A stretch of 64,000 nt of DNA, taken from Squalus acanthias (lineage: Eukaryota). The notes under the pieces are model-generated. The model saw only the letters and a list, made by a program, of their open reading frames with translations, made no database searches and was not told the origin of the DNA. Shown piece after piece: positions 7,970-58,264 of this stretch. The stretch is from contig CM059431.1 in NCBI GenBank assembly GCA_030390025.1, positions 116,128,001-116,192,000 of the forward strand, read 5' to 3'. The position numbers and the translations under genes are program-made. Positions within the stretch are counted from its first letter, which is position 1. Each line of letters starts with the position of its first letter.

Positions 7970-9201
7970 ATGGGAACCATTTATTTCCTTTCACCATGGA
8001 GCTCAGATTTGGATGAGGAGCAGCCACGGCAGCAGCAGAACCAGGCAGCTCAGCAGCAACAGCAGCAGGAGCCCCAACCTCCTGCTCACCCACCTGATGC
8101 TGCACAGGGCAGAAGGCGCCAACGCATGGAAGCATTTCGCTGCAGGAGATACCCCCAACACAGGGTTTACAGACAGAGGATGAGCTACCTCAACATGAGT
8201 GAGCAGCAGTGCCAAAGGGGGCTGAGACTTTTCAAGAGGTTGTCGGAGACATCTGCGCACTGCTGCACCAACACCTGGAGCCCAGAGGAGCGGGTGGACA
8301 CCCCTTACCAGTGGCTGCCAAAGTCACCACCGCCCTCAACTTTTTTGCCTCAGGCTCCTTCCAGGGAAAACCGGCAGACATCAGCGGCATCTCCCAGTCG
8401 GCCACCCACACTTGCATCACGCAGGTTACCGATGCCCTTTTCGCAAAGGCGCACAATTACATCCACTTCTCAAGGGATCAAGCAAGTGTAACTGCGTGTT
8501 CAGTTGGCTTTGCAAATATGGCAGGCTTGCCAATGATGCAGGGCATCATAGACTGTACACATGTGGCCCTTAGGGCACCCCATCACAACCCAGCTATCTT
8601 TGTCAACTGCAAGGGCTTCCACTCCCTCAATGTACAGTTGGTGTGTAACCACAAGAAGGAGATTTTGCATGTTTGCGCCAAGTTCTGTGGTAGTTGCCAT
8701 GACTCGTTCATCCTGCGGAACTCTAGTGTTCCACCACTTTTCAATCCACCAAACCAACTTAACGGATGGCTCCTTGGTGACAAGGGCTACCCCCTGAAGA
8801 AGTGGCTAATGACACCGATCAGGAGGCCAGCTAACGAGGCTGAAGAGCGCTACAATGCCAGCCACATTTCGACCAGGTCCATCATCGAGCAAACCATTGG
8901 CTTGTTGAATATGCGATTCCGATGCCTTGACAGATCAGGTGGAGTCCTGCAATATTCAGCAGCCAGGGTCTCCAGAATGGTCGTGGTCTGCTGTGCACTG
9001 CACAACATGGCACGGCATCATGGCTTGCAGCTCTCTGATGAGCAAGTGGCTCAGTTCATAGCCTCCTCAGATGAGGATGAGGATGAGGATGAGCAGGAGG
9101 AGGTCCGAGCGCCGGCCTATCGACCAACAGCAGCGGCAGAACGCGAGCACATGGCTGCCCGTGATGCAAGGCATGCACTTATCCTGGCCAGATTTGCTTA
9201 G
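7970..9201 (+). pseudogene. Harbinger (HARBI1-like) DDE transposase with one frameshift near 8230
   Basis: ATG at 7970 (MGTIYF...), Q-rich N-terminus, then [45 protein letters not shown] and CCALHN. The catalytic D, D and E are intact. Confidence 0.92.
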
Positions 9202-9458
9202 GTTGCCCATGTTGGCACATGTCCTTGACTTCATCTTAAGACATGATAGACAATGGACATGAATCTCTGGCCTCCTTTCACTCTGGCCACCAACCTGACC
9301 ACGCAAGTGTCGCGGAGCCCGCAATGTAGAGCTACCTAAGGCGAAATAACAGATGCCATCACACCAACAGTTTGCCATCAAATCATTTTTATACTTTCAA
9401 ACAGGGATGGCATTTTGTCAATAAACATAAAAATTCACCCAGGTAGCTACCCTTGTGA

Positions 9459-11382: not shown

Positions 11383-11666
11383 TGCTGAAGCAGAAAAAAT
11401 GTTGGAGGTGGTGCAGCATCGACTAAAATCCACTGGAATGAGCCAAGGCAGCAAGCAGCCCTTAAATGAAGCTGGATAAGTGACGTCAGCAGAGGCGAGT
11501 TTCAGTCCCAAAGGACTAATTTTCCCAGGGGAACCCACACCTCTGAAATTAACTGGCCAATTAGGGAAAAATCGCAATTTTTTCCCACCTGACAGTGGAG
11601 GCGGGTTTGGAACCTGCCGAAACCGAAGCCCCCCTCCAACCCGCCTCCAATGGGAAAATCACCCCT

Positions 11667-23139: not shown

Positions 23140-23229
23140 TGTGTGTCTCAAAAGCAGCTTGTGCTCACACTGGAATCGGATAGTGTGTGTCTCAGCAGCT
23201 CTCATACTGGTTTGTGTAGTATGAAAATG

Positions 23230-24305: not shown

Positions 24306-24832
24306 GGGCTGGATTTTGCCGGGCCCGCGGAGGCGGGTTTGAAGGCGGGTCAGGTGGGAAAGTTGCAAAAAATGGCGGTGGGCTCCGATCCCGCCTTCAA
24401 CCCGCCTCTGCGCAACTTTCCCAAATGCGGGCTTGCAGACCCCGTTTTGGTCCCGCCTCCAAGAGGCGGGATAGGCCCTTAAGGCACTTAACTATTACTT
24501 AAGTACCTGTATAATCCCATTTTGATAGGCCTTTCAGAGTTTACCACATTTCCCCCATGTTGCACATCTCCCCTGGAACACGCCAGCTAATCCTGTCGGG
24601 TTCACAAGTGGATGGCTTACTAACAGCTGCAGCTCCACCATAAAAACGGAGTTTTCCACAATGATCATTTACAAGTGGCAGAACTTTCTTTTCTCAGGTC
24701 TTGGAGAACTTTTTGCAGGTCTACTGATTTTGGAAGTGTTGAAGCTGAGATCCATCTCCACTGTGACCTCCTGGGAAAACCCTATCCCCACCTTGACTCA
24801 GCACTTCCTCAACTGAGGTATAAACCAGCAGC

Positions 24833-26060
24833 ATGGGAACCATTTATTTCCTTTCCTCCTGGACCTCAGATTCAGACGAAGACCAGCCGCGGCAGCAGCA
24901 CCCGGAACAACAGCAGCACCAACAGCAGCAGCAACAACAGGAGCGCCAACCTGCTGCTCACCCACCTGAAGCTGCACAGGCCAGAAGGCGCAGGGAACGA
25001 CGTCGCCGCAGGAGATACCCCCAAAACAGGGTTTACAAACAGAGGATGAGCTACCTCAACATGACTGAGCAGCAGTGCCAAAGGAGGCTCAGACTTTCGC
25101 GAGAGGTAGTGGGTGACATCTGCTCAATGCTGCAGCAAGACCGGGAGTCCAGAGGAGTGGGTGGACACCCCTTACCAGTGGCCATCAAAGTCACCACTGC
25201 ACTCAAATTTTTTGCATCAGGCTCATTCCAGGGATAAACAGCAGACATCAGCGGCATCTCCCAGGCGGCCGCACACACTTACATCACGCAGGTAACTGAT
25301 GCCCTCTTTGCAAAGGCGCACAATTACATCAACTTCTCCAAGGATCAAGCAAGTATAACCGCGCGTGCAGTTGGATTTGCTAATATGGCAGGCTTTCCAA
25401 TGGTGCAGGGCGTCGTAGACTGCACAAATGTGGCCATTAAGGCACCTCATTACAATCCATCTCTTTTTGTCAACCGCAAGGGCTTCCATTCCCTCAACGT
25501 GCAACTAGTGTGTAACCACAATAAGGAAATTTTGCACCAAGTACCCCGGCAGTTGCCATGACTCCTTCATCCTCCGACAGTCTAGTGTGCCTCCGCTCTT
25601 CAGTCCACCAAACCTACTTTGTGGATGGCTACTAGGAGACAAGGGCTATCCCCTGAAGACATGGCTAATGACGCCGTTCAGGAGGCCATCCAACAAAGCT
25701 GAGGAGCGCTACAACTCCAGCCACATTTCGACCAGATCCATTATCGAGCAAACCATCGGCTTGCTGAAGATGCGATTCAGATGCTTTGATAGTTCAGGTG
25801 GAGCCCTGCAGTACTCAGCAGCCAGGCTCTCCAGAATTGTCGTGGTCTGCTGTGCACTTCACAACATGGCACAGCATCGTGGCTTGCAGCTGCCTGAGGT
25901 ACAAGTGACTCAGCGCATAGCCTCCTCAGATGAGGATGAGAATGAGGAGGAGAGCGAGAACGGAGATTTTGCGGAGGCGCATCAACCAGCGGCAGCAGCA
26001 CGTGAGAACATTGCTGCCCGGGATGCAAGGGATGCACTCATCTTGGCCAGAATTGCTTAG
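24833..26060 (+). pseudogene. Harbinger DDE transposase (stop at 25235-25237, small deletion at ~25535)
   Basis: [10 protein letters not shown]..., [14 protein letters not shown] and [17 protein letters not shown]. Confidence 0.9.
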
Positions 26061-26317
26061 GCTGCCCAATCAAACACATTTGGCTCGCACCTTCTTACCA
26101 CACCGTCGACAATGGACAAGCTCCTACGGCTTCCTGTCACTCTGACCACCATACTGAAAAATCCAAGTCGCCTGAGCCCTCAATGTGGAAGTCCCTTTTT
26201 CGAAATGACACAGCCCACAACTTCAATAGTTTGCCATCAATTCATTTTATAACATTCAGTAAAGGATGGCATTTCACAATTAAACACAACAGAACACTCA
26301 AGTGACTACTCTTGTGA

Positions 26318-28305
26318 CTACTTGTGCTTTATCTTCCTCTTACGCGTGCTCCTACATGGTGCTTCCCCTGTGGCTTCAGCAGATGTGGAGGCCCCTTGCT
26401 CACTTTCATGCTGTTCCTGCCTCGACACATTTGGCGTGTGTCCTCTGGGGTTGCGAGCCTGTGAGGGCTCGCCAACACTCTGCTTTTCCTGTGGCTGTGC
26501 TGGGGCTGAGACGCCCATCTCAGTTGGGTGAGGACTCTAGTGGGGCTCTGACCGAGGGCTCTGCAGTGGCATGGTTGTGTGAGCGCTTGGAGAGGAGCCC
26601 CCACTTCCTTGTTGTCTGCCACCAACATCCCTCTCATGGGTCAGCCCCACTTCAGAGCTAGCAAGTGGTTTGACAGCACTTTGCTGCACTTCAGGGGGGC
26701 CATGAGGACCCGTATTTGCACTGGAAGTCCTACTCCAGAGGACTTCCATGAAGCTCTGGTTTCTCTGCTCAATAGCTGCCCATCACTCCTCCAGAGATGT
26801 CAGTCTATTCTGAACAATGACCATGTTTTGAAGACCCTGGCGACTTAGTTCCTCCATGGCCGTAGCCATCCTCTCCTCTACCATAGCCATGCTCTCCTCT
26901 ACGGTAGCCATCCTTTCCACGGAGGTTGCCATCCTTTCCGTGGTGATGCGTTCATTCACCAATGCCTCCACAAAGGCTCTGCTCCTATTAGCGATGGACT
27001 CCTCCATTCGCTCCACACTCGCAGCGACCCTGGAGACAAAACCTGCCAAAGACTCCTGCACCTGTTCCTGGAGTTCCAGCACCGCTCTCCTTCTGGATGG
27101 ACCCGGAGGCACAGGGTCAACATGCAGCTGAGCCGAGCTGGGAGGGCCCTGCAGCCTCTGATGAGGACTCTCCACTGCTGTCCCTGTCTCCACCATCTGT
27201 TGATGCTCACTTGTGAGCTGTGATACACCAGGTGACAACACTAATCTGTGTCCCGAAGGTCCCACCGAAGTGTGAGTGTCTGCGCTGGTGCTGGGTGCAC
27301 TTAATTCTGCTGATGCTGCACCCTCAGAGGTTGCAGCTTCCTCTGCGGAGTCTTCTGGCTCAGGCTGTTCCTCCTGGACAGTGGTGATCGGGGCTGTCGA
27401 TGGTCCTGTGGGGGAGTAAAGGAAAGAGTTAGACATGTGATATAAACGTTGCATGCACATGGAATTGTGCAGATGATCATAAGTCAATCTGTTAGAGAAT
27501 CAGAATCAATATCAGTCACTCATGCAATGTCAATGAGAGAGATGAAAAACTATTCTGTCACCAGCTCGCTCTGATGCGCCCATCTGTCCGTCCCCCACTT
27601 GTGCATCCTCCTCCACTTCCACAATCTCCAGGGCCACCTCCTCTGCAGTGGTGAGCTGGGCTATTGAAGGTGGCCCTCCTCCTGTCTTGTCCCTTTCCCT
27701 CTTATTGTGGGCTCTCTTTTCCTGCAATGAGGGACACAAGTGGGGTTTGAGTGAGAATGAAGGAGTGAGTGTAGAGAATCCATAGCATAGATGCTTAGAA
27801 GGACACAAAGATGGAGTGAGGTCCCAAGACCAAGGGCCCTCCCTGTGTGTTGTTAGTTGTTTTCATAGCATATCAGTGATAGGGAGTGTGAGGGCTGCAT
27901 AGTCGAATAGTTAAGTGAATGTGTACATAGAGAGAGAGGGAATGGTTAAGGGTGCAAGGGATGTAAGGGTCAAGTGGGATGCGGAGGAGGAGGTTGACAA
28001 TGCAGTGTGCTGGTGATGAGAGGCGGTGGGGAGCAGATTGAGGGTCATGGTGATGTCATACTCACATTTCCTGTGCGGAGAAGGTAATTAATCCTCTTTC
28101 TGCACTGCAGCCAGGTTCTGCTGCACATTGATTTTGCACTGACCTCCTGTGCCACTTGCAGCCACACAGCTTTGGTCTGCTGGGGAGGTTTTTTCCTCCT
28201 AGAGGAAGGAAACAACACCTCTTTCTATGCTTTGGCTCCCTCCACCAGAGCATGGAGTGAGTCCTCATCAAAGCGGGGTGCAGCCTTGGACCTTGAAGTT
28301 GACAT
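26318..28305 (-). pseudogene. Harbinger Myb/SANT-like gene, exons 28305-28066, 27721-27562, 27405-26318, with several in-frame stops
   Basis: Exon sizes of 240/160/1088 nt are identical to copy H4. It reads MSTSRSKAAPRFDE... and ends RRSTRKRKIKHK. Confidence 0.85.
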
Positions 28306-28829
28306 CTCCGCAGCACGAATCCCACATAAAAGTTTAGAGGCAGAAAATGAACCAAGGCTGCTTGCAGGCCTTTAATGCAGCGGCATAAATGATGTCATCA
28401 GAGGTGAGTTTCAGGACCAAAAGACTCATTGGGCCAGGGATGCGCACACGCTGGGAATCAATTGCCCAATTAGGGCAAAATCGCTAAATTATCCCGCCTG
28501 ACATTGGAGGCGGGAATGGGACCCGCCGACAACCTGACCCGCCCCCAACCCACCTCCAAAGGCAAAATCCAGCCTGTTAAGTCCCTGTCCCTGATTCAAT
28601 ATTTGTTTCCTTGGGATTTCCAGCATGCTCTTCTCTACTGTAAATACTGACACTTAAAGTAATTATTTAACATGTCTGCCATTTCCTTATTATTGACAAT
28701 ATCACCGTCATCAGTTTCCAAGGGTCCAACATTGCTCCAGACCACCCTCTTTTTCCTATTTTAAATAATGTAAAAATAAAGGGTGTTTCACTGTTTACTT
28801 GAATCTCGGAAATTGTGTTAGTTGGAAAT

Positions 28830-38651: not shown

Positions 38652-40598
38652 TACCTTACTTTGACAGAGGATTAATGCAGGTGAAGGAGCGTCTTCCCAA
38701 AGAAAGCTAGGACAGCAGAGCAGATGGCATCATTACGATATGTGAATGCCTGACAATCATAATGTTGGATGCTTTCTGAGAAGCATCGCAGTCAGAGTAT
38801 GCCTTGCTTTCAATGGCACTGCATGAAGAAGGCTGCAAAGGTGATCAAGAGCCAATGTTACTTAATTGGCCACACCAGACGATATGCCACCAACTATTTC
38901 CGCACACGTGACTGGCAATGACCATGGAGACCGTTCTCTCATGGTCTGGGGATGGTACAATGCATTGGCGCACAGAGGGCGATGCTCCTTCCTAATCACC
39001 TCATGAGGTACTGCTTCGATTTCAGCAGCCATCAAACGTGGTCAGGTGTGAAACTGCTCTGTCACTTACCTACGGATTCATCCCTGCATCTTGGGTTTCC
39101 ATTTCTTTCATTTTTATCTGTCTCTTCTTTGTCCTCTGCCCTTTTGGAATATTGGGTGTAAACAGCCCATGATCCTTTCAGTCTGTCTGAAACTCACCAT
39201 TAGCCAATCTGACAATATCCTAAAAAAGGAAAATCTGGTGTAAAACCGGCACAATATATACAAATTTCCTGGCGCGTGGTGATGTGCCTGATCTGTGCCA
39301 ATGGCATGGCCTCAATCACATTGGTCTGTGCTGTTTTTAGGGGTCCCTGGTGACCACCTGAAAGCAGCGTTGGACCAAGCTAAATATGCAAAGAAGGGTC
39401 CTGTGCCTCTTTTCAGGACCCATCTGCAAAATGTGCCATGCCTTCTCCGACTAATTTTTCCAGTGTTACAGTGGCCTAGCCTACTGTTCTTAATGGGATT
39501 GCTGGAGGCTGATGAAGAAATGGTAGGGAAATTCTTTTTTGACTTTTACTCCTGTGGAGCGGTGAGGAGCAGGAGTCCTCCTCCCAGCTGCACAGCACTA
39601 CTGCCCACTGCTGCCGCCCTGTGCTCGGCCTCCTCACGTTTTCCTCTGCCCTGCCTCCAAGGACTCACCAGCAGTCCGCTACTGGCGGGGCAGGAGGTCC
39701 ACATTCAATCCCCGCGATCGGATGAGCTGCCTCTGGAGGCGCGACATGCGTCGGAAACTTACTTCCATTATTAAAATGAAGCCAAGGACTCAATTTCAGG
39801 TGAGCTGCTGGCCTCCAGCTTCGGGCAGGGACCTGCAGGGTGTCATATAATTTGGGCCTGAAAACGAGCCCAAACCAATTTCTCCTCCGTTGTTTCTACA
39901 GCCTAACAAATTATATCAAGTTAAAAGCAATCACACATCAATTATGGTTCATAAATAAACCTGCATTAAAAGCAAAGAATTTTTTAATTCTAATTTCTCT
40001 CTGAATCTCAGATTAGTGGCGTTCCCCCCTCTTGGTTCAAATCATTCTGCACATATTCAATCTGAAACAAAGGGCTGGATTTTGCCAGGCCCGAGGAGGC
40101 GGGTTTGAAGGCGGGTCAGGTGGGAAAGTTGCCAAAAATGGCGGCGGGCTCCGATCCCGCCTTCAACCCGCCTCTGCGCAACTTTCCCAAATGCGGGCTT
40201 GCAGACCCCGTTTCAGTCCCACCTCCAAGAAGCAGGATAGGCCCTTAATGCACTTAACAACCACTTAAGTACCTCGATAATGCCATTTTGATAGGCCTTT
40301 CAGAGTTTACCACATTTCCCCCGTGCTGCACGTCTCCCCTGGAACACGCCAGCTAGTCCTGTCGGGTTCACAAGTGGATGGCTTACTAACAGCTACAGCT
40401 CAACCATAAAAACGGAGTTTTCCACAATGATCATTTGCAGGTGGCAGAACTTTGTTTTTTCAGGTCTGGGAGAACTTTTTGCAGGTCTACTGATTTTGGA
40501 AGTGTTGAAGCTGAGATCCAGCTGCAGTGTGACCTCCTGGGAAACCCCTCTCCTCACCTTGACTGAGCGCTTCCTCAACTGAGGTACATACCAGCAGC

Positions 40599-41845
40599 AT
40601 GGGAACCATTTATTTCCTTTCCTCCTGGACCTCAGATTCGGATGAAGGCCAGCCGTGGCAGCAGCAGAACCCGGAACAACAGCAGCACCAACAGCAGGAG
40701 CAACAACAGGAGCGCCAACCTGCTGCTCACCCACATGAAGCTGCACAGGCCAGAAGGCGCCAGCGCAGGGAACAACGTCGCCGCAGGAGATACCCCAAAA
40801 CAGGGTTTACAAACAGAGGATGAGCTACCTCAACATGACTGAGCAGCAGTGCCAAAGGAGGCTCAGACTTTCGCGAGAGGTAGTGGGTGACATCTGCGCA
40901 ATGCTGCAGCAAGACCGGGAGCCCAGAGGAGCGGGTGGACACCCCTTACCAGTGGCCATCAAAGTTACCACCGCACTCAAATTTTTTGCTTCAGGCTCAT
41001 TCCAGGGATCAGCAGCAGACATCAGCGGCATCTCCCAGGCAGCCGCACACACTTGCATCATGCAGGTAACCGATGCCCTCTTTGCCATCGCGCACAATTA
41101 CATCAACTTCTCCAAGGATCAAGCAAGTGTAACCGCGTGTGCAGTTGGATTTGTTAATCTGGCAGGATTTCCAAGGGTGCAGGGCATCGTAGCCTGCACA
41201 CATGTGGCCCTTAAGGCACCCCATCACAATCCAACTCTTTTTGTCAACCGCAAGGGCTTCCACTCCCTCAACGTGCAGCTGGTGTGTAACCACAAGAAGG
41301 AAATTTTGCATGTTTGCGCCAAGTACCCTGGCAGTTGCCATGACTCCTTCATCCTACGGCAGTCTAGTGTGCCTCTGCTCTTCGGTCTGCCAAACCAAAT
41401 TTGCGGATGGCTACTTGGAGACAAGGGCTATCCCCTGAATACGTGGCTAATGACGCCGTTGAGGAGGCCATTCAACGCAGCTGAGGAGCGCTACAACTCC
41501 AGCCACATTTCCACCAGATCCATCATTGAGCAAACCATTGGCTTGCTGAAGATGTGATTCAGATGCCTTGATAGATCAGGTGGAGCCCTGCAGTACTCAG
41601 CAGCCAGGGTCGCCAGAATCGTCGTGGTCTGCTCTGCACTGCACAACATGGCACAGCATCGTGGTTTGCAGCTGCCTGAGGTACAAGTGACTCATCGCAT
41701 AGCCTCCTCAGATGAGGATGAGGAGGAGAAGGAGGAGAGCGAGAATGAAGAGCTTGCGGAGGCGCATCAACCAGCGGCTGCAGCACGTGATAACATTGCT
41801 GCCCGGGATGCAAGTGATGCACTCATCTTGGCCAGATTTGCTTAG
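40599..41845 (+). pseudogene. Harbinger DDE transposase (frameshift at ~40795, first catalytic D changed to A, CGA>TGA at 41555)
   Basis: [33 protein letters not shown], ending LILARFA*. Confidence 0.9.
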
Positions 41846-42091
41846 GCTGACGAATCAAACACATTTGGCTCGCACCTTCTTACCACACCATCAACAATGG
41901 ACCAGAACCTACGGCTTCCTATCACTCTGACCACCATACTGACAATTCCAAGTCGCCCTGAGCCCTCAGTGTGGAAGTCCCATTTGTGAAATGACGCAGC
42001 CCACAAATTCAACAGTTTGCCATCAAGTCATTTTATAACATTAATTCATCTATGGCATTTCACAATTAAACACAACAGAACACCCAAGTGA

Positions 42092-42935
42092 CTACTCTTG
42101 TGAATTATTGTGTTTTATCTTCCTCTTACGTGTGCTCCTACGTAGTGCTTCCCCTGTGGCTTCAGCAGATGTGGAGGCCCCTTGCTCACTTTCCAGCCTT
42201 GGCACCTTTGGCGGGGGTCCTCTGGGGTTGCGAGCCTGTGAGGGCTCGGCAACAGTCTGCTTCTCCTGCGGCTGTGCAGGGGCTGAGACACCCATTTCAG
42301 TTGGGTGAGGACTCTGGTGGGGCACTGATCAAGGGCTCCACAATGGCATGGTTGTGTGAGCGCTTGGAGAGGAGCCCCCACTTCCTTGTTGCCTGCCACC
42401 AACATCCCTCTTCTGGGTCAACTCTTATGGGTCAACGCCACTTCAGAGCTAGCAAGTGGCTTGACAGCACCTTGCTGCACTTCAGGGAGGCCATGAGGAC
42501 CCATTTCTGCACTGGCAGTCCTACTCCAGAGGACTTCCATGAAGCTCTGGTTTCTCTGCTCAATAGCTGCCCATCGCTCCTCCAGAGATGTCAGTCTATT
42601 CTGAACAACGACCATGTTTTCAACACTCTGGTGACTTAGCTCCTCCATGGCCGTAGCCATCCTCTCCTCTACCGTAGCCATCCTTTCCACAGAGGTTGCC
42701 ATCCTTTCCGTGGTGATGCATTCATGCGCCAATGCCTCCACAAAGGCTCTGCTCATGTTTGCGATGGACTCCTCCATCCGCTCGACACTCACAGTGACCC
42801 TGGAGACAAAACCTGCCAGAGACTCCTGCACCTGTTCCTGGAGTTCCAGCACCGCTCTCCTTCTGGATGGACCCGGAGGCATAGGGTCAACATGTAGCTG
42901 AGCCGAGCTGGGAGCGGCCTGCGCCCTCTGATGAC
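42092..42935 (-). pseudogene. Myb/SANT gene exon 3 fragment
   Basis: PSRRRAVLELQEQVQESLAG...RRSTRKRKIKH. Confidence 0.8.
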
Positions 42936-43205
42936 TCTATTGGGGGCGGGTTGGGGGCTGGTCAGGTGGTCAGCGATTCCCACCCCCGCCTCCAATGTGA
43001 GGCGGGATAATTTGACGATTTTGCCCTAATTGGGCACTTGATTCCAGCGTGTGGGAACCCCTACCCCAATGAGTTTTTTGGTCCTGAAACTCACCTCAGA
43101 TGACGTCATTGATGCAGCTGCATTTAAGGCCTGCAAGCAGCCTTGGTTCATTTTCTGCCTAACTACTTTTTTGGGGGACACTTCTGAGGGATGGGTGGTG
43201 CATAG

Positions 43206-43420
43206 ATGTCAACTTCAAGGTCCAAGGCTGCACCCCACTTTGATGAGGACTCCCTCCTTGCTCTGGTGGAGGGAGCCAGAGCTCAGAAAGAGGTGTTGTT
43301 CCTTTCTATGGGAGGGAAAAACCTCCCCAGCAGGCCAAAGCTGTGTGGCTGCAAGTGGCACAGGAGGTCAGTGTCATCTCAATGTGCAGCAGAACCTGGC
43401 TGTAGTGCAGAAAGAGCTTT
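43206..43420 (+). pseudogene. Myb/SANT gene exon 1 fragment (inverted relative to exon 3)
   Basis: MSTSRSKAAPHFDEDSLLALVEGARAQKEVLF. Confidence 0.8.
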
Positions 43421-43699
43421 AAATGCTTCTTGAATGTTGTGAGGGTTCCTGCCTCTACCACCCTTTCAGGCATTGAGCTCCAGATTCCAACCACCATCTG
43501 GGTGAAAAAGTTTTTCCTCAAATCCCCTCTAAATCTCCTGCCCCTTACCTTGAAACTATGCCCCCTGGCTATAGACCCCTCTACTAAGGGGAAAAGTTCC
43601 TTTCTATCTACCCTATCTATGCCCCTCATAATTTTGTACACCTCAATCAGGTCTCCCCTCAGCCTTCTCTGCTCTAAGGAAAACAACCCCAGCCTGTCC
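43421..43699 (-). mobile_element. CR1 LINE fragment
   Basis: LGLFSLEQRRLRGDLIEVYKIM...RKNFFTQ. Confidence 0.85.
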
Positions 43700-43702
43700 A
43701 AA

Positions 43703-45660: not shown

Positions 45661-46766
45661 CACAAAATGCTATTCCGCCCTCCCCAAGATGGAATCCTCT
45701 GAGGAGTGCACTAATCACACTGGGAACCAACCCTGAACATTAAATGAAGTTCCAAGGCGAACAATTACAGTGGTCATTGGTGCTGAAACAATGCCAAGAA
45801 GTGCACAAGCAGCTGTAGTGCTAAACTGGACAAGGAGGAAAATCTTGGCCATAGACTCAGGATCAGTGAACTCTCTCCATATAATATGGAATTTTGCTTT
45901 ACAAATTTCTACATAATTTCACCTCATCATCAGATTTATTTCAGCAAAACAAAAAAGAATAAATAAAATAATTGCAGCAATTTGCATAGTTTTTCAAATG
46001 AAGAATTTTTTTCCATATCTAAGAAGTTTATTTTCCATCAATTTTTCTACCCTTTGGGCCTAATTAATATTTATTTCACTTTTATGTCTTTGAGTTCTGT
46101 CCAATTTCAGATTGTTAGGCACATCCCTCCTGAATTGCTTGACTTTTTTTTGCTAATAGACTAGTTAATGTTGCAAACAAAGTATTCCTGCTCAACTGCT
46201 TGTGCTTGTGTACCAATAAAATGTACCATGTGGGAGATATTTAACCAAATTGTCCAGTCAGCAACATTCTGTCCCAATATCCTATAGAAAGATAGGTATC
46301 TGGTAAATAACTATTTTGGTTTGTAACAATATGAGCCCCAAATAAAAATATTACTAAGAGACATTAGAACTCTGAAACATTGCTTTAAAAATGTATATTG
46401 CAGATAAAATCCTTTATTAACTGATGTGAAAGATTGTACTTCATACAATAATATTGATTTTGATAGGTGCCTGTTCCGTATATAACGGGCTCGATTTTGC
46501 CAGTGTGGGCGGGCTGGGGCGTGTCAGGTGGCATTCGTGTCAGGACCCCGACTCCGAAGTGAAGTGGGGAAAACGTGCGATTTTCCCCTAATTGGGCAAT
46601 TGATTTCCAGTGTGTGGGAACCCCTGGCCCAATGAGTCTTTTCATTCAGAAATTCGCCTCCGATGATGTCATCAATGCTGCTGGATTTAAGGCCTGCAAG
46701 CAGCCTTGCTTCTTCTGGAGACTGCAAACTTTATGGTGATTGTAGTAAGGACTTCATTGATCGACT

Positions 46767-48732
46767 ATGTCCACCAGCAGGCAAAAGTGTGTTTCACGCT
46801 TCGATGAGCCCTCCCTCCAAGCTCTGGTGGAGGGAGCAAGATCGAATAAGGAGGTGCTCTTCCCTTCCTCAGGGAGAAAAAAGCCACCCCAGCAGACTAA
46901 AGCTGTGTGGCTGCAAGTGGCCCAGGAGGTCAACTCCACATCGATGAGCCGCAGAACCTGGCTGCAGTGCAGGAAGAGGTTTCATGACCTTCTCCACAAA
47001 GGAAAAGTGAGTATGACTTTCCCATCATCCTCAATCTGATCCCCATCACCTCTCCTCACCAGCACTCTGCTTTGCCAACCTCTTCCTCCACATCCCACTT
47101 GACACTTACATCCCTGCAACCTTACCCATTGCCTCCCTCTCTATGGACACATTCACTTAACTATTCGACTATGTAGCCCTCACACTCCTTATCACTGTGA
47201 TGCAACAACAACAACAACTTGCAACACACAGGGAGGACCCTGTGTCTCCTTCTAAGCATCTATGCTATGCATTCTCTATACTCACTCCTTCATTCTCACT
47301 CAAACTCCACTTGTGTTCCTCATTGCAGGAAAAGAGAGCCCACAATAAGAGGGAAAGAGCCATGACAGGAGGAGGGCCACCCTCAGTAGCCCAGCTCACC
47401 GCCTGGGAGGAGGCGGTCCCAGAACTCGCCGGGATCGAGGACGATTCCCAAGTCGGGGGCGAGCAGACGGGTGCCTCACAGCAAGTTGGTGACAGACTAG
47501 TTTGGCATCTCTCTCATTGACATTGCATGAGTCACTGATAATGATTCTGATGCTCTAACAGGTTGACTTATGATCATCTGCACTATTCAATGTGCATATA
47601 ATCTTGACCTCACATCTCTAACTCTTTCCTTTACTCCCCCACAGGACCATCGAAAGCCCCTGTCCCCGCTATCCAGGAGGAACAGCCTGAGCTTCCAGAC
47701 TCCTCAGAGGAAGCTGCAACCTCTGAGGGCGCAGCCTCAGCAGAATTAAGTGCACCCAGCACCAGCGCAGACACTCACACCTCGGTGGGACCTTCGCAAG
47801 ATAGAGAAGTGTTGTCACCTGGTGTATCACAGATCACAAGTGAGCATCAGCAGATGGTGGAGACAGGGACAGCAGTGGAGAGTCCTCGTCGGAGGGCGCA
47901 GGACTCTGCCAGCTCGGCTCAGCTGCATGTCGACCCTGTGCCTCTGGGTCCATCCAGTAGGAGAGCGGTGCTGGAACTTCAGGAACAGGTGCAGGAGTCT
48001 CTGTCAGGTTTTTTCTCCAGGGTCGCTGCGAGTGTGGAGCGAATGGAGGAGTCCATCGCTAACATGAGCAGAGCCTTTGTGGAGGCATTGGCACATGAAC
48101 GCATCACCGCGGAAAGGATGGCAACCTCCATGGAAAGGATGGCTACCTTCGTGGTAAGGCTGGCTACCGTAGAGGAGAGGATGGCTATGGCCATGGAGGA
48201 GCTTAGTTGCCAGGGTTTTGAAAACATGTTCATTGTTCAGAATAGACTGGCATCTCTTGAGGAGTGATGGTCAGCTATTGAGCATACAAACCAAACCTTC
48301 ATGGAAGTCCTCTGGAGTAGGACTTCCAGTGCAGAAATGGGTCCTCATGGCCCCCCTGAAGTGCAGCAAGGTGCCATCAAGCCACTTGCTAGCTCTGAAA
48401 TGGGGCTGACCCATGAGAGGGATGTTGGTGGCAGACAACAAGGAAGTGGGGGCTCCTCTCCAAGCGCTCACAAAACCATGCTACTGCAAGGCCCTCGGTC
48501 AGAGCCCCACCAGAGTCCTCACCCAACTGAGATGGGCGTCTCAGCCCCTGCAGAGTCACAGGAGCGGCAGACTGTTGCCGAGCCCTCACAGTTTCGCAAC
48601 CCCAGAAGATGCCCATCAAAGGCGTTGAGACAGATGCAGCAAGAAAGTGAGCAAGAGGCCTCCACATCTGCTGAAGCCACAGGGGAAGCACCACGTAGGA
48701 GCACACGTAAGAGGAAGATAAAGCACAAGTAG
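46767..48732 (+). pseudogene. Near-intact Myb/SANT-coiled-coil gene: exons 46767-47006, 47329-47488, 47645-48732 (495 codons), single CGA>TGA at 48265
   Basis: All four splice sites are canonical and phase-compatible (0, then 1). The frame is otherwise open from MSTSRQK to RKRKIKHK*. Confidence 0.85.
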
Positions 48733-48990
48733 TCACAAGGGTAGTCACTTGGGTGCTGTGATATATTGTATTTGGACCAGCCATCCTTGTCATGGTAGCA
48801 TAAACAGATTTGATGGCAAACTGTTGAAGTTGTGGCCTGTGTCATTTTGCAAATGGGACTTTCACATTGAGGGCTTAGGGTGACTTGCAATTGTCAGTAT
48901 GGTGGTCAGAGTGATAGGAATCCGCAGGTTCTTGTCCATTGTCGATGCTCTGGTAAGAAGGTGTGAGACAAAAGTGTTTGATTCTGCAGG

Positions 48991-49214
48991 CTAAGCAAAT
49001 CTGGCCAACATGAGTGCGTCCCTTGCATCCCGGGCAGCAATGTGGTCGCGCGCTGGTGCCTTCTGGCCTGTGCAGCTTCAGGTGGGTGAGCAGCAGCTTG
49101 GCGCTCCTGTTGTTGTTGCTGTTGGTGCTGCTGTTGCTCATGGTTCTGCTGCTGCCGCGGCTGGTCTTCGGACAAATCTGATGTCCAGGAAGAAAGGAAA
49201 TAAATGGTTCCCAT
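48991..49214 (-). pseudogene. Transposase remnant (N-terminus joined to last codons, ~1 kb deleted at ~49050)
   Basis: [10 protein letters not shown]...AQARRHQR is joined directly to the sequence encoding ...ARFA*. Confidence 0.85.
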
Positions 49215-50806
49215 GCTTCTGCTATGATCTCAGTTGAGGAAGCGCTCAGTCAAGGTGGGGACAAGAGTTTCCCAGGAGGTCACACTGGAGATGGGTCTCA
49301 GGCTCCAAACTTCCACAACAATGAGTAGGCCTGCTAAAAGTTCCCCCAGACCTGAGACAACAAAGTTCTGCCATCTGCAAATGATGATTGCTGAAAACTC
49401 CTTTTTAATGGTGGAGCTGCAGCTGTTAGTAAGCAATCCACTTGTGAGGCCGCCAAGATTACCTGGCGTGTTCCAGAGGAGGCGTGTAGGATGGGGAAAT
49501 GTCTAAAATCAGAAAGGCCTCTCAAAATTGGATTATAGAGGCAATTAAGTGGTTGTTAAGGGCCTATCCCGCCTCTTGGAGGCGGGATGAAAACGGGGTC
49601 TGAAACCCCGATTCTGAGAAAATTGCTCGGAGGTGGGATGAAGGCGGGATCGGGCCCGTCCTCCATTTTTGTGCGATTTTAACACCTCATACGCCTCCAA
49701 ACCCGCCTTCTCGTGCCTGGCAAAATCGAGTCCAACTACTCTGTGGACATATCAGGAAATTTCAGGTGCACTTGCTGCAATTTTCCACTCACTTGGATGG
49801 AAAATTGGGGGAGCTGCCTGCAATTTCCTGATCTGTAGTCTAATTGCGTGGGGCAGTGTCCCCACAATTTCTAGATATGCACTACTAGTGGATGAGGCTT
49901 CATGCAAAGAGGACACCTTTATACACTTTACCTTTCCATCTCTAGTGTTGCCTGAACTTTTTATATTTTATCCTCTGGTTCCATGATGACAGCAATGACT
50001 AAGAAAATGCTATTCGGCTCTTTATGCCAATTTCATTTACAGCCCGTGTCCAATCAGTTCCATCACTGACTCTGCCCGAAATTTGAATATCCTGAAGAAA
50101 GGTTCTGCCAGAACCAAAGGTCAATCAACTAAAGTTAAAAAATTAAGGTCCTAGATCTTACAATCTAGACTAATTGCCTTCCTTTGGGATGATATCTCCA
50201 TAGTTACAGCATTTGATTATCTCTATCTCATTTTATCTTTAAAGCTTTCAAATATTCAACCAGCTCTTGGAAAATAAAATGGTTAATTAACAGGGCCTCA
50301 ATTTATCATCTGTGAATATATTCCACATCCCCATAACTCTGAGGAGGAAAAATAAAACCCTTTAATCTTGTCTTGCTTGATGCATGTTAATTTTATTCTC
50401 ATTGTCTGCTGGTCTGAGTAAAGTTGAAGATTGCACCAGGCAGTCGAGAAATGTTGTGCAGCAAACATTGTCTGCAATGCAGGCTGCCATTGAGCAGCAA
50501 ACAGCCTGAGTGGTGCCTACAAGCAAGACCGAAAGCACGCTGGTTGCGGAAATAGTTGGAGCAGGTCTCCACTGATGATGCCAAGATACTGGGGTCAAAA
50601 GTCCAAGATATGATCAAGGTAGATTTCTAAACTGTTGGACTTGCATTCAGGACAATCGTAAAAGAGGGATTGAGAGGTGGCATAACAGTGCAATGGCCTG
50701 TGCTCATGGGAACCTTTATCCAGTGTTAGGGGTTTGCCTCAAATAGTGGCACATGCAAAGAAGTAAAGAAACAGGCTGGTTGCTCTCAAGTCACCACCAG
50801 TCCTCG

Positions 50807-51658
50807 AAACTCAAAAGGTTAGTATGCAGGTGCAGCAAGTGATTAAGAAGGCAAATGGAATGTTGGCTTTCATTGCTAGGGGGATAGAATATAAAAATAG
50901 GGAGGTATTGCTTCAGTTGTACAAGGTATTGGTGAGACCGCACCTGGAATACTGCATACAGTTTTGGTGTCCTTACTTAAGGAAAGACATCCTTGCTCTC
51001 GAGGCAGTGCAAAAAAGGTTCACTCGGTTAATCCCGGGGATGAGGGGGTGGTCATATGAGGAGAGGTTGGGTAGATTGGGACTCTACTCATTGGAGTTCA
51101 GAAGAATGAGAGGCGATCTTATTGAAACATATAAGATTGTGAAGGGGTTGGATCGGGTGGATGCGGGGAGGATGTTCCCGATGACGGGTGAGACGAGAAC
51201 TAGGGGACATAGTCTTAGAATAAGGGGCTGCTCTTTCAAAACTGAGATGAGGAGGAACTACTTCACTCAGAGGGTGGTAGGTCCATGGAATATGCTGCCA
51301 CAAAAAGCTGTAGAAGCTACAACATTAATTAAATTTAAAACAGAAATAGACAGTTTCCTAGAAGTAAAGGGCATTAAGGGTTACGGGGAGCGGGCAGGAA
51401 TTTGGACATGAGTCTAGGTTCGGATCGGTCATGGCCCTGTGGGTAGTGGAGCGGGCCCAGGGACTGTGTAGCCTGATTCTGCTCCTATTTCGTGTGTGCA
51501 ATTCTGTTAGATGCAGGAGATGGTTCTGTGATAGATAGTAGATTGGCGGTTAGGATCAGATCAGCCATGATCTTATTGAATGGCGGAGCAGGCTCGAGGG
51601 GCCGATTGGCCTACTCCTGCTCCTATTTCTTATGTTCTTATGTTCTTATGTTCTTATG
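50807..51658 (+). mobile_element. Young 5'-truncated CR1 LINE (open ORF2 C-terminus 50824-51411)
   Basis: Uninterrupted 195-aa CR1 C-terminal frame and a (TTCTTATG)n tail. Confidence 0.92.
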
Positions 51659-52019
51659 AAATCATTGTAGCCAGTGTTTTTTTATTTGTATACAGAAATA
51701 GCATGTGAGTAAGTCAACAAATACAGAAAAAAAAACGAGAATACTTGACCCTTGAAACATTGTGCTCACAGTTCACTGTCTGCCTGGTCTAGATTCACAG
51801 AAATCTGATGACTCCAAGGGCCCCTGGGATCCTTCCATGGAACCAGTTTGAAAACCTATAGGTGTAGAATTTTACTGCAGTGGTCAACTTTTATTCCACT
51901 AAGAATGCCCTCCAGAATATTGCTCCGTTGTTGCAGATCTGATTTCAGGAGCTGACTCAGCTCAAAAATGGTGTTCCTGTTGAGGTCCAGCTCCCTTGAT
52001 GCTCAGAGAAAAGGCAATC

Positions 52020-52230
52020 AACAACTCGCATTTATATAGCGCCTTTAGCGCAGTGAAATGTCACAAGACGCTTCACAGGAGCATTATCAAACAAAATTTG
52101 ACACCGAGCCACATAAGGAGATATTAGGACAGGTGACCAAAAGCTTGGACAAAGAGGTAGGTGTTAAGGAGCATCTTAAAGGAGGAGAGAAAGGTAGAGA
52201 GGCGGAAAGGTTTCGGGAGGGAATTCCAGG
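52020..52230 (-). mobile_element. L2 3' end fragment
   Basis: Reverse complement of the L2 tail at ~1510-1740. Confidence 0.75.
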
Positions 52231-52417
52231 CCCACACATGCTTTCCCCACTTCTTACGGAACTCATCCCCATTTATTTACCCATCCTCCCTCGCACCAGA
52301 GCCAAAGCAAAGTAGCTAATTCAGGAAACCTCTGTGAAAAATTCTTCTCTGATCCTTAAAGGTGACCAGGCAAACCTTCGAAGAGCCCTGACCTGCTGGT
52401 TATTATCCAGAATCTTA

Positions 52418-53262
52418 GGGCTGGATTTTATGAATGGAGACATGTTGGAGGCGGGACTGCTGCTTGCCCGGTTTCAGTCCCGCCTCCATCAGCTTCTGGC
52501 CAACCAGCGGGATTTTCCCTTGATTGACCTTGTTAAGCCCGCCCAGCGGGCTCAGCAGGCCAATTAGGAGGTTCTCAGTGACAGAGCACGTCAACGTATG
52601 ACGTGTCATCTGTCAAGAATTTTTGAAAGAAGAAATGTATTCATTTGACAGCTCTGTGAAGCTGTCAGACACTGACATTCTGTGTAGTTGATGAGACCTT
52701 ATGTTCAGGACTCATCAAACCTTTCTACTTTGCAGAAATCAGCTGGCTGTTGGATCGAAGGATGCAACAGCCAGTCTGTGATCTCTACAATGGAGATGTC
52801 AGGGACTACAGCTCCACAGCGGCTGAAGGCTGTAGGGTGAAACAAAGGTAAGTTAACATTTTCTAACACTTTACACTCACCTCACATACTTACCACTCCA
52901 CACTTGCACCCATCACTCACCTCTACATCGCACTTTCAGACCTCTCTGACCCCCGCAGACCTCCTACTCAGCTCTTACACCCCGGCGGAGTTCCCTCAGG
53001 TCGGGAAGCCCGCACTTCAGCACGAAAAATGGGGATAATCCTATTTTCTGCCTGTTAACTACCTGTTAACAGGCAGTTAATCGGCTTTAATCCCTTCCCG
53101 CCTCCAAGGAGATGGGACCCGGGGCAGGACGGCTTCCCGCCTCCTGGCAAGAGGGCACGGAGGCGGGTTGGGGGCGGGTTTGCTACCCGCCCCCAAATTC
53201 TGCAACTTTCCCGGCAGTCCCGCCTCCATACCCGCCTCCTCGGGGCTGAGAAAATCCAGCCC
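52418..53262. mobile_element. MITE family B (reverse orientation)
   Basis: TIR GGGCTGGATTTT / AAAATCCAGCCC and TSD TTA. Confidence 0.9.
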
Positions 53263-54889
53263 TTACTATCTGTCTGCAGTGATCTTGTAACTTTTCAGAG
53301 ATAAACAGGAAGGGAAACAGCTGGGGCGTCCCACTAGTAACCAGACCCACTGGAAAGTAGCCTGATTAAAACCACCTTTTAACGACAGTCCTTTAGCCAA
53401 TTTAAATGTGGCTTTGTCTATAATATGTGATTGTCAATTATAAATGCTATAAGTGGAGCTGGTTTTATTTAAATTCCCCCTTCCTAATTTTAGAGCACAG
53501 CTGCAGAGAGCACGACGCAGCAGTATTTAGTTGTGACACTATTGTAATAAGTTTAGCCCCTAAGGTAAAAGGATTGTTAGTGTCTGTTTACAAACACTGA
53601 CACATTCATTAGATGACATTTTCCTCGGCTTGCATTGGCAATTGTGCAGATTAAATAGTGGCCGTAAGCCTTCTATTTGTGATAAATGCATTTGTATTTA
53701 CTGACTGTTTCAAGTTTCCACTTAATGCCATACACTGATGGTAATGTTTTAAGTAGTGAATCTAATAGACCATTGGGATCATAACCGGGGACAGAATTAC
53801 AGCGAAAGTGTTTGCGCACAAATTTAAAATGACGAATTGCAACATTAAGTAGTTTCTAGACCAAATTCAAGCAGGCCCTAATGATCAGAACACTATAAAA
53901 AGTGCTCACAGAGCCACATATGAAAACAAATTAAACTGCATAACAAGATAATAAAAATACAGGAAACTGAAGCCTACAGAAAATGTATAATGTCTACATA
54001 AAATGCTTAACTCTGCCAGAAAGGCAATGCCTGAGGTACTTTAAGCCCAGCAGAGAAGAAATAAATTGTTTGTGACAGGATTTCCAGAGTGAGTTAGATT
54101 TCCACAGTCAGTTCCACTGCGTTGTCAGTAAACCTTAAAGTTACAGAAAACTATAACCTTGATACTGCTGGGACCTTGTAGACACCTTGCTGTGATCAAG
54201 CAGGCTTCAGTCAGTTCAGCTGCATAACCACATAACAAAAAGCATTACACTGCAGCTGCTGGAAAGCCAAAACAAAACGAAAAATGCTGGAAACACTCAG
54301 CAGGTCAGGCAGCATCCGCAGAGAGAACAGATGAGTTAACATTTTGACAAAGGCACACACCCATAATGTTAACTCACCTGTTCTGCGTGTAAAATGATAG
54401 CTAATCTAATTAAGAAGCCGCTTAACCAGTTGTAAGAGACTGCAAGTAACATAAAAACTGCTGCTGCCAGCCGTGGCTCAGTTGGTAGCACTCTTGCATC
54501 TTGAGTCAGAAGGTCATGGGTTCCAAGTCCCATTCCAGAGACTTGAGCACACAATCTCGACTGACACTCCAGTGCAGTACTGAGGGAGTGCTGCACTGTC
54601 AGAGATGCTGGGCTGGATTTTGTCAGTGTGGGCGGGCTGGGGCTTGTCAGGTGGAAATCGTGTCAGGACCCTGACTCCTAAGTGAAGTGTTGAAAAATTG
54701 GGATTTTCCCCTAACTGGGCAATTGATTTCCTGCGTGTGGGAACACCTGGCCCAATGAGTCTTTTCATTCAGAAAGTCGCCTCCGATGACGTCATCAATG
54801 CTGCTGGATTTAAGACCTGCAAGCAGCCTTGCTTCCTCTGGAGACTGCAAAGGCTCTGCAAATTGTATGAAGGTGTTGATTTCCCAACA

Positions 54890-56832
54890 ATGACCACGAT
54901 CAAGCAAAAGTGTGCACCTCGGTTTGATGAGCCCTCCCTCCAAGATCTGGTGCACAAAGCCAGATGTGATAAGGAGGTGCTGTTCCCTTCCCAGGGAGAA
55001 AAAAGCCACCCCAGCAGACAAAAGCTGTGTGCCTGCAAGTGGCCCAGGAGGTCAACTCCATTTCGCTCAGCCGCAGAACCTGGCTGCAATGCAGGAAGAG
55101 GTTTCATGATCTTCTCCGCACAGGAAAAGTGAGTATGACTTTCCCATCACCCTCAATCTGATCCCCATCGCCTCTCCTCACCCGCACTCTGCTTTGCCAA
55201 CCTCTTCCTCCACATTCCACTTGACACTTACAAGCCTGCACCCTTACCCATTCCCTCTCTCTCGAAGGTCACATTCACTTAACTATTCGACCATGCAGCC
55301 CTCACACTCCCTATCACTGTGATGCCATGACAACAACAACTTTCAACACACAGGGATGGTCCTTTGTATCCTTCTAAGCATCTATGCTATGGATTATCTA
55401 CACTCACTCCTTCATTCTCACTCAAACTTCACTTGTGTCCCTCATTGCAGGAAAAGAGAGCCCACAATAAGAGGGAAAGAGCCATGACAGGAGGAGGGCC
55501 ACCCTCAGTAGCCCAGCTCACCACCTGGGAGGAGGCGGCCCTGGAAATCGCCGGGATCGAGGACGATTCCCAAGTGGGGGACGGACAGTTTGTCGCATCG
55601 CAGCAAGTTGGTGACAGAATAGTTTGGCATCTCTCTCATTGACATTGCATGAGTCACTGATAATGAATCTGATGCTCTAACAGATTGACTTATGATCATC
55701 TGTACTATTCAAAGTTCATGTAACCTTGACCTCACATCTCTAACTCTTTCCTTTACTCCCCACAGGACCATCGAAAGCCCCCGTCCCCACTGTCCAGGTG
55801 GAAGAGCCTGAGCTTCCAGACTCCTCAGAGGAAGCTGCAACCTCTGAGGGTGTAGCGTCAGCAGAATTCAGCACACCCAGCACCAGCGCAGACACTCACA
55901 CCTCGGTGGGACCTTCGCGAAATAGTGTAGTGTTGGCACCTGGTGTATCACGGCTCACAAGTGAGCATCAGCAGATGGTGGAGACAGGGACAGCAGTGGA
56001 GAGTCCTCGTCGGAGGGCGCAGGACTCTGCCAGCTCGACTCAGCTGCATGTCGACCCTGTGCCTCCGGGTCCATCCAGAAGGAGAGTGGTGCTGGAACTC
56101 CAGGAACAGGTGCAGGAGTCTCTGGCAGGTTTTGTCTCCAGGGTCACTGCGAGTGTGGAGCGAATGGAGGAGTCCATCGCGAACATGAGCAGAGCCTTTG
56201 TGGAGGCTTTGGCGCATGAATGCAGCACCACGGAAAGGATGGCAACCTCCGTGGAAAGGATGGCTACAGTAGAGGAGAGGATGGCTATGGCCATGGAGGA
56301 GCTAAGTCGCCAGAGTGTAGAAAACATGGTCATTGTTCAGAATAGACTGGCATCTCTTGAGAAGCGATGGTCAGCTATTGAGCATAGAAACCAGACCTTC
56401 ATGGAAGTCCTCTGGAGTAGGACTTCCAGTGCAGAAACGGGTCCTCACAGCCCCCCTGAAGTGCAGCAAGGTGTTGTCAAGCCACTTGCTAGCTCTGAAG
56501 TGGGGCTGACCCATGAGAGGGATGTTGGTGGCAGAGAACAAGGAAGTGGGGGCTCCTCTCCAAGCGCTCAAACGACCATGCCACTGCAAAGCCATCGGTC
56601 AGAGCCCCACCAGAGTCCTCACCCAACTGAGATGGGCATCTCATCCCCTGCATAGCCGCAGGAGCAGCAGACTGTTGCCGAGCCCTCACAGGTTCGCAAC
56701 CCCAGAGGACGGCCGCCAAAGGTGTCGAGACAGGAGCAGCAAGAAAGTGAGCAAGGGGCCTCCACATCTGCTGAAGCCACAGGGGAAGCACCACGTAGGA
56801 GCACGCGTAAGAAGAAGATAATGCACATGTAG
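54890..56832 (+). pseudogene. Myb/SANT-coiled-coil gene: exons 54890-55128, 55451-55610, 55766-56832 (1-bp deletion in exon 1, stop at 56653)
   Basis: Collinear with the H4 gene. Exon 3 is exactly 21 nt shorter. Confidence 0.85.
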
Positions 56833-57090
56833 TCACAAGGGTAGTCACTTGGGTGTTATGTTGTTTTTATTTTTGAAATGCCACCAGTTGCTTGTTGTGA
56901 TAAAAAATTCTGATGGCAAACTGTTGAAGTTGTGGCTTGTGTCATTTTGCAAATGGGACTTCCACATTGAGGGCTTAGAGCGACTTGCAATTGTCAGTAT
57001 GGTGGTCAGAGTGATAGGAATCCGCAGGTTTTTGTCCATTGTCAATGCTCTGGTAAGAAGGTGCGAGGCAAAAGTGTTTGATTGTACAGG

Positions 57091-57317
57091 CTAAGCAAAT
57101 GTGACCAACATGGTTGCGTCCCTTGCATCCTGGGCAGCAATATGGTCGCGCTCTGGCGACTTCTGGCCTGTGCATCTTCAGGTGGGTGACTAGCAGCTTG
57201 GCGCTCCTGTTGATGCTGCTGCTGTTGGTGCTGCTGTTGCTCATGGTTCTGCTGCTGCCGCGGCTGGTCTTCATCTGAATCTGATGTCCAGGAGGAAAGG
57301 AATTAAATGGTCGCCAT
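57091..57317 (-). pseudogene. Transposase remnant with the same deletion as H4 (junction ~57150)
   Basis: The Q-rich N-terminus is joined to the terminal codons. Confidence 0.82.
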
Positions 57318-58264
57318 GCTTCTGGTATATGCCTCAGTTGAGGAAGCGCTTAGTCAAGGTGGGGAGAGGGGTTTCCCAGGAGGTCACGCTGGAGATGGGT
57401 GTCAGGCTCCAAACTTCCACAACACTGAGTAGGCCTGCTAAAAGTTCCCCCAGACCTGAAACAACAAAGTTCTGCCACCTGCAAATGATCATCGGTGAAA
57501 ACTCCTTTGTAATGGTGGAGCTGCAGCTGTTCGTAAGCAATCCACTTGTGAGGCCGCCAGCATTACCTGGCGTGTTCCAGAGGAGGCGTGAGGGATGGGG
57601 GGGGGGAATGACTAAAAATCGGAAAGGCCCCTCAAAATGGGATTATAAAGGCTATTAAGTGGTTGTTAAGGGCCTTAAGGGCCTATCGATGGAAAGGGGG
57701 TCAGAAACACACTTTTGCAAAAATTGCTCGGAGGCGGGATGGAGGCGGGATCGGGCCCACCTGCCATTTTTGGCCATTTTAACAACTCACACGCCTCCAA
57801 TCCCGCCTCCTCGGGCCTGGCAAAATCGAGCCCGCTGTCTTTTGGATGAGATGTTCAACTGTGGTCCCGTCTGCCCTCTCAGCTGGACGTTAAAGATCCC
57901 ATGGCACTTTTCAAAGATGAGCAGGGGAGTTCTCCCTGGTGTTCTGGACAATATTTATCCCTCAACCAACATCACCAAATCAGATTATTTGGTCATTATC
58001 ACATTGCTGTTGGTGGGACCTTGCTCTGCGCAGATTGACTGCCGCGTTTCCCACATTACAACAGTGACTCCACTTCAAAATGACTTCAATGGCTGTAAAG
58101 CGATTAGGGACATCCTGAAGTTGTGAAAGACGCTGTATAAATACAAGTCTTCCACTGCTTAGCCTCCTTTTTAGGATGCAATTACCCTATTGTATGCAAA
58201 ACAATGAAAAAAGACAAGGATGAAGTAGAATTAAGGAACCCTTTTTGAGTAAAAAGAAAAGAAA

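Follow-up and report, generated by a model that had tools for sequence, protein, structure and literature searches.

PIF/Harbinger transposons require two proteins for transposition, a DDE transposase plus a protein of the Myb-like type that binds the ends of the element and imports the transposase (PMC9179366, citing the work of others; here and below, papers are cited for those of their passages that bear on such elements). Within a 64-kb window of Squalus acanthias (64,000 nucleotides of contig CM059431.1, the whole stretch of DNA analyzed here), two Harbinger copies, H4 and H5, are devoid of the DDE core of the transposase gene and carry a three-exon Myb/SANT gene. Both copies are old and dead and belong to a non-autonomous deletion subfamily of Harbinger in which, we surmise with a probability of roughly 0.52, the Myb gene was carried passively. 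In the two-gene design, the Myb/SANT domain, the terminal inverted repeats (TIRs) and the 3-bp target-site duplication (TSD), the family resembles autonomous PIF/Harbinger elements (PMC9179366), with the full layout present in two relatives within the window, H1 and H2; H4 and H5 differ from these in lacking the DDE core.

A Myb-only Harbinger layout is already known from sea kraits and from Caenorhabditis inopinata, and H4 and H5 are a further case; the subfamily configuration put forward in a sequence-only reading of this DNA had thus been published before (PMC8437027; PMC13668399). The sea krait element Harbinger-Snek has solo-open reading frame (ORF) variants, with 452 intact Myb-only vs. 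2263 transposase-only copies in Laticauda colubrina and 6 Myb-only copies in L. laticaudata. Like H4 and H5, it is a vertebrate Harbinger with multi-copy Myb-only variants, attributed to large deletions, but the sea krait variants are young and many are intact following horizontal transfer, whereas H4 and H5 are old and broken (PMC8437027); the relevant passages of that paper hold no selection test on these variants. Harbinger-1M_cIno of C. inopinata likewise consists of deletion derivatives that are MADF/Myb-only and have TIRs as well as 3-bp TSDs, for which a DDE transposase in trans has been proposed, a supply that its authors call hypothetical; it differs in being active now, with 14 of 19 MADF loci intact, several of them expressed, and one intact DDE locus (PMC13668399). 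H4 and H5, for their part, share their window with full-length relatives, and neither an intact nor a spliced copy was encountered. In addition, NAIF1 and MSANTD1-4 descended from Harbinger Myb-like genes, but these are syntenic single-copy genes that date back about 430-500 million years and evolve under negative selection (PMC9392472), whereas H4 and H5 are repetitive, are bounded by TIRs and TSDs and have lesions. The pertinent passages of PMC2213677 and PMC5741667 contain nothing specific on Myb-only elements, and a named Myb-only class in newt was not confirmed, a literature search for it returning 0 papers and the passages of PMC5741667 containing no such class. No paper on a shark Myb-only Harbinger was found by title or abstract start, in a search that lay outside subscription journals and Repbase.

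The two copies, what is left of their transposase genes and the three relatives against which the deletion was defined are as follows.

46487..49733, + strand: H4, non-autonomous Harbinger of 3247 bp, with 17-bp TIRs at 46487-46503 and 49717-49733
46484..46486, + strand: left TSD of H4, AAC (right copy 49734-49736)
54610..57833, + strand: H5, second copy of 3224 bp with 17-bp TIRs, 89% identical to H4
54607..54609, + strand: left TSD of H5, GCT (right copy 57834-57836), sitting within a repeat
48986..49212, - strand: H4 transposase remnant, about 52 N-terminal codons, then the last ~70 nt out of frame, the DDE core being gone at 49055/49056
57086..57315, - strand: H5 transposase remnant, junction 57155/57156 as in H4, TAA at codon 5
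7455..11665, - strand: H1, full-length two-gene relative and outgroup, with DDE_Tnp_4 on the + strand at 8203-9198
24306..28574, - strand: H2, full-length two-gene relative, dead, with TGA at Myb codon 341
40072..43430, - strand: H3, transposase region kept, Myb gene rearranged and partly deleted, its 5' piece inverted at 42935-43430

In a self-comparison of the window, H4 and H5 formed one 3258-column match of 89.0% identity that stopped at the element termini. The TIRs are complementary over 17 nt to 94% in H4 and 88% in H5, shorter than the 25-50 bp usual for PIF/Harbinger (PMC9179366), and each copy is bounded by its own 3-bp TSD (AAC/AAC and GCT/GCT), bearing out the earlier claim of separate insertions. 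An empty site for H5 supports this as well: a paralogous repeat copy at ~58550-58630 is without the element and has a single GCC triplet there. Segmental duplication was considered as the origin of the pair and ruled out, as similarity stops at the TIRs.

The common deletion of ~1 kb of transposase also stood up to analysis. Both copies lack the same stretch, equivalent to 1004-1020 nt in H1, H2 and H3, with junctions at 49055/49056 in H4 and 57155/57156 in H5 that lie in a ~6-bp GCGCTG-like microhomology; the missing stretch carries DDE_Tnp_4 in H1 and H3. Neither copy therefore contains a DDE transposase ORF, whereas the ends and the Myb gene are kept around the internal deletion, as in solo-ORF elements, and two independent insertions in 64 kb attest to multi-copy spread after the deletion. 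H4 and H5 cluster at 140 of 171 informative sites, and a 24-nt deletion in intron 1 is common to these two only. Four public runs, two of them (X16 and X18) guessed to be RNA although none of the listed runs is recorded as such, were compared with H4 at the contig level. The 32 pieces listed, out of about 146,000, included no contig that crosses the junction with 31 letters per side, and exact-pattern scans of metagenome contigs across the junction and in exon 3 returned 0 loci each. Other family contigs harbor deletions that also take part of Myb exon 3, at 48142-49233 (two runs), 48382-49050 and 47998-49081. Rfam gave no match within 46000-58500.

The Myb genes of both copies can be laid out exon by exon.

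46767..47006, + strand: H4 Myb-like exon 1, 80 codons, Myb/SANT domain PF13873
47007..47328, + strand: H4 intron 1, GT..AG, 322 nt, with the 24-nt deletion found only in H4 and H5
47329..47488, + strand: H4 Myb-like exon 2, 160 nt
47645..48732, + strand: H4 Myb-like exon 3, with TGA at 48265-48267 (codon 341, also in H2) and a basic C-terminal RRSTRKRKIKHK beyond the stop
54890..55128, + strand: H5 exon 1, frameshifted within the Myb domain by loss of 1 nt at codon 35 (about 54991) and carrying W48C
55451..55610, + strand: H5 exon 2
55766..56833, + strand: H5 exon 3, with TAG at about 56653 (codon 437)

A Myb/SANT-like gene of the PIF/Harbinger type is present, exon 1 of H4 matching PF13873 Myb_DNA-bind_5 (E 4.2e-9, 36.6 bits vs. 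a cut-off of 21.7), with atlas matches in agreement. The intron between exons 2 and 3 of H4 is 156 nt (GT..AG), and the three exons add up to 495 codons with a single TGA at codon 341, so that H4 is, as had been claimed, one CGA>TGA change from an open frame and would yield a product of 340 aa. That product would be devoid of the basic C-terminal tail, which may act as a nuclear signal. Comparison with solved structures gave no match; a protein search with exon 3 of H5 returned 2 proteins among 2086 candidates, both from Heptranchias perlo and 46-48% identical, which fits a shark-like host, and exon 1 against longer proteins, a weak test, returned 0 of 24 candidates.

The lesions in H5, namely W48C, a frameshift inside the Myb domain and, at codon 437, a TAG, had been overlooked in the sequence-only reading; given these, the description of the Myb gene as complete holds for the three exons with their splice sites and not for coding capacity, the ORF being intact in neither of the two existing copies. 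Splice-site survival had been a misleading basis for that description: all four sites are also kept by H1 and H2, which are full-length but dead, and 16 splice bases would survive in two copies with a probability of 0.37-0.52 under 4-6% neutral decay. The number of stops in H4 and H5 together, 2 vs. 4.7-4.8 expected, has P=0.11-0.15. Codon 341 is TGA in H4 and in full-length H2 and CGA in H1, H3 and H5, and the stop is therefore a CpG hot spot. Each lesion occurs in just one of H4 and H5, and the ancestor reconstructed for the pair is free of stops, with the 495-codon ORF open.

We postulate the following sequence of events for a passively carried gene. Starting from a full-length element, a deletion bounded by two short GCGCTG-like repeats would have taken out ~1.0 kb of the transposase gene, most probably while an excision gap was being repaired; here the junction is observed and the repair route is our conjecture. 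The shortened element retained both TIRs and the subterminal repeats and was thus mobilizable in trans, presumably by the transposase and Myb protein of full-length relatives, in keeping with the independent insertions observed. The Myb gene would have been kept because the deletion missed it, being open in the common ancestor and decaying neutrally in each copy after insertion. Contig evidence for such passive carriage comes from further derivatives that delete parts of the Myb gene, e.g., 48142-49233. Passive carriage also fits with the higher frequency at which smaller PIF/Harbinger elements move (PMC10288884) and with the preponderance of transposase-only over Myb-only variants in sea kraits (2263 vs. 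452; PMC8437027). The excess of synonymous changes over the first half of exon 1 would represent a patch exchanged with another lineage of an abundant, mosaic family, rather than selection on an element without transposase.

The patchiness of the two copies is most evident in two blocks.

46726..46766, + strand: hypervariable 5' untranslated region (UTR) block, H4 and H5 differing at 17/41 sites
48750..48810, + strand: hypervariable 3' UTR block, H4 and H5 differing at 26/61 sites

The 41-43% divergence in these blocks stands against 5% in intron 2 (8/155 sites) and the rest of the 3' UTR (9/175), a clustering whose variance was reached in 0 of 2000 permutations. With UTR blocks this divergent, neither H4 nor H5 descends from the other. 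Words of H4 were present in 20 of 24 listed public runs (8 studies, six organism labels). Contigs of run X8 span the right end of H4 and its flank with 3 differences in 622, whereas in run X1, which has a different organism label, this end is crossed with 21 differences in 244, and the flanks differ at 25/480 and 24/316; the H4 insertion is therefore older than a species split with 5-9% flank divergence, which at slow shark rates would amount to tens of millions of years. Summed contig depth, which is not a copy number, was about 26,000-1,900,000 across the element vs. 3-10 on the flanks, pointing to a very abundant Harbinger family. Over the divergent UTR blocks of H4, depth was thousands of times that of the flank (14,744 at 48763 vs. 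about 7 in run X8), so the H4 type, as defined by its UTR blocks, is itself multi-copy.

The same patchiness is relevant to an improbable alternative, namely that two autonomous sub-lineages diverged under selection and that each then acquired the same deletion, either through repeated recombination at the microhomology or through gene conversion that copied the junction. The microhomology at the junction fits with this scenario, as do the sub-lineage blocks that differ on both sides of exon 3 and 17 contigs of X8 that show a loose end before 49050 with a full-length continuation unlike H2 and H3. A raw omega (the ratio of non-synonymous to synonymous change) of 0.25 between H4 and H5 in the N-terminal transposase remnant also speaks for it, but this value is uninformative, as the remnant comprises only 49 codons, too short for a neutral control, and 2 of its 6 synonymous differences, as judged by eye, stem from slippage of the alignment within a CAG/CAA run. 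An identical 1-kb deletion arising twice is, in addition, the less parsimonious course.

A codon model was fitted on the five copies. For the whole ORF, the H4+H5 stem had an omega of 1.14, compared with 0.16 for the H2+H3 stem (p=0.007 vs. 1) and 0.50 for H1; values of 0.5 and below were rejected for the H4+H5 stem, which also differed from the H2+H3 stem (p=0.024), and the H4+H5 tips gave 0.80 (p=0.27 vs. 1). The sequence-only reading had proposed a semi-autonomous lineage and had named a dN/dS of about 1 on internal branches as the outcome that would speak against it. The whole-ORF value of 1.14 is such an outcome, in contrast to the Myb domain alone after the H4/H5 split. Of that proposal, a transposase-less subfamily that was presumably moved in trans is supported by the two insertions, the 140/171 sites and the open ancestor, while retention of the Myb gene by selection was not demonstrated.

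Several results from the same model weigh against passive carriage: 1) for codons 8-95, the Myb domain, omega on the H4+H5 tips was 0.35 (p=0.014); 2) in these codons, H4 and H5 have 11-13 synonymous changes vs. 6.0-6.6 expected under a CpG-aware null (P=0.004-0.019); 3) on a simple tree, the branches with low domain omega are younger than the deletion; 4) exon 3, which makes up 73% of the ORF, lacks significant constraint on every branch and thereby dilutes the whole-ORF value; 5) omega on the H4+H5 stem is unstable, at 2.13 for exons 1+2 and 0.37 for the domain; 6) synonymous sites of exon 1 outpace non-coding sequence in every family comparison, and mosaicism is therefore not required for the pattern; and 7) no donor lineage for exchanged patches was identified. 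We consider it possible, if somewhat doubtful, that transposase-less masters made a Myb protein binding their own ends while borrowing transposase, and split into H4- and H5-types under purifying selection on the DNA-binding domain, with H4 and H5 as their dead descendants. The domain omega after the split, the open ancestral ORF and the multi-copy state of the H4 type by UTR-block depth argue for this view, and C. inopinata offers a parallel, with 14 of 19 MADF-only loci having an intact domain and one being a recent insertion (PMC13668399). The whole-ORF stem omega of 1.14 and the patchy H4/H5 divergence, however, do not favor it. In addition, the domain window was picked post hoc, after the result for exons 1+2, and most of its signal came from H4, with P=0.13 for H5 alone and a weakening to P=0.058 for H4 when ties were resolved by a different rule. 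The proteins of DNA transposons work in trans, so that a helper gene carried by a non-autonomous copy is under weakened selection. Purifying selection on the Myb gene after transposase loss is thus possible but unproven, and the domain signal may have been imported from full-length relatives, these elements being patchworks. Intron 1 (47007-47328, with counterparts in H1, H2 and H5) is 83-91% conserved across subfamilies vs. 61-87% for exon 1, and synonymous divergence in exon 3 is low too, which together would be compatible with homogenization or with constraint at the DNA level.

Private changes in H4 bear on where the synonymous excess arose. At 38 of the 40 listed of the 449 differences between H4 and the family majority, the majority has the letter of H5, and the 16 coding differences in that list comprise 13 non-synonymous and 3 synonymous, with three lying in exon 1. 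Based on this ratio of 13:3, H4 itself decays neutrally and its synonymous excess stems from the source lineage. That parent may be either a transposase-less lineage, as the semi-autonomous view holds, or a full-length donor of patches, as passive carriage would have it, two options that five copies cannot separate.

These changes also count against a function for H4 as it stands. A role for H4 as a family repressor, or as an MSANTD/NAIF1-like gene at an early stage of domestication that encodes a 340-aa protein, is very improbable, even though H4 is free of frameshifts, has kept its splice sites and sits at the same site in another species. Its listed private coding changes look neutral, its stop removes the basic tail and is a hot spot shared with dead H2, and H5 is frameshifted. 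Unlike a domesticated gene, which would be single-copy with an intact ORF under negative selection, H4 belongs to a high-copy family and has a premature stop. No splice joint at 47006/47329 or 47488/47645 was present among the 15 of 180 joints shown for the two runs guessed to be RNA, which is not evidence of silence; listed contigs of the same runs read unspliced through intron 2 (47435-47792) or the border of intron 1 and exon 2 (47243-47380). With both copies broken, the regulatory or domesticated role suggested earlier was not upheld. X16 and X18 each have a contig whose match to exon 3 is confined to 47811-47925 and whose long arms are unrelated, one of them ending in AG, and which may be the transcript of a more distant Harbinger family; a depth peak over 47811-47925 was seen in X1 as well.

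The left end of the elements has changed along with that of a miniature inverted-repeat transposable element (MITE) family.

46504..46570, + strand: remodelled left subterminal region, in which YGTGTYA motifs replace most GGCGGG repeats, common to H4, H5 and MITEs M0/M1

Two MITE copies of ~715 bp (230-941 and 60506-61223, 89% identical) carry this YGTGTYA left end. Both cluster with H4 and H5 at both ends (bootstrap 99 and 89), a grouping that suggests that much of the H4+H5 stem is older than the deletion. The left end common to a MITE family is one more point for semi-autonomy. It would also favor a bolder reading, which we regard as unlikely: a long-lived Myb-only lineage, with its domain under purifying selection, whose Myb protein recognized the re-tuned left end (YGTGTYA for GGCGGG) and served as specificity factor for itself and the sister MITE family, borrowing only the catalytic subunit.

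Additional Harbinger-related repeats are found in the window. H3, with its transposase region retained and its Myb gene damaged, is roughly the mirror image of H4 and H5. H6 (59153-60428) is an H1-type internal deletion derivative with neither coding core and directly adjoins a MITE. An ~850-bp family with Harbinger-like GGCGGG ends, 71-87% identical, occurs at 14631-15475, 22295-23140, 43701-44550 and 52415-53264, the last copy being placed between H4 and H5. Also between them, at about 50800-51640, lies a 3' end resembling that of a long interspersed nuclear element (LINE), with a short TATGTTCT tandem tail. A 1.55-kb inverted pair (16184-17724 and 28827-30364, 82% identical) is weakly similar to the region of the transposase remnant and is probably another Harbinger family.

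No Harbingers were found in elephant shark, and a check of other cartilaginous fish has been called for (PMC9179366); H4 and H5 extend the superfamily by a cartilaginous-fish-like example. Myb-only variants pose the question of whether the Myb gene is kept by selection or by accident. The family described here suits that question, as it is abundant, is shared by several related species and has Myb-only and Myb-damaged forms next to full-length ones and MITEs. If the bolder reading were true, it would amount to a three-tier system of DDE donor, Myb-only helper and MITE, in which selection on the helper tier would be supported by phylogenetic evidence.

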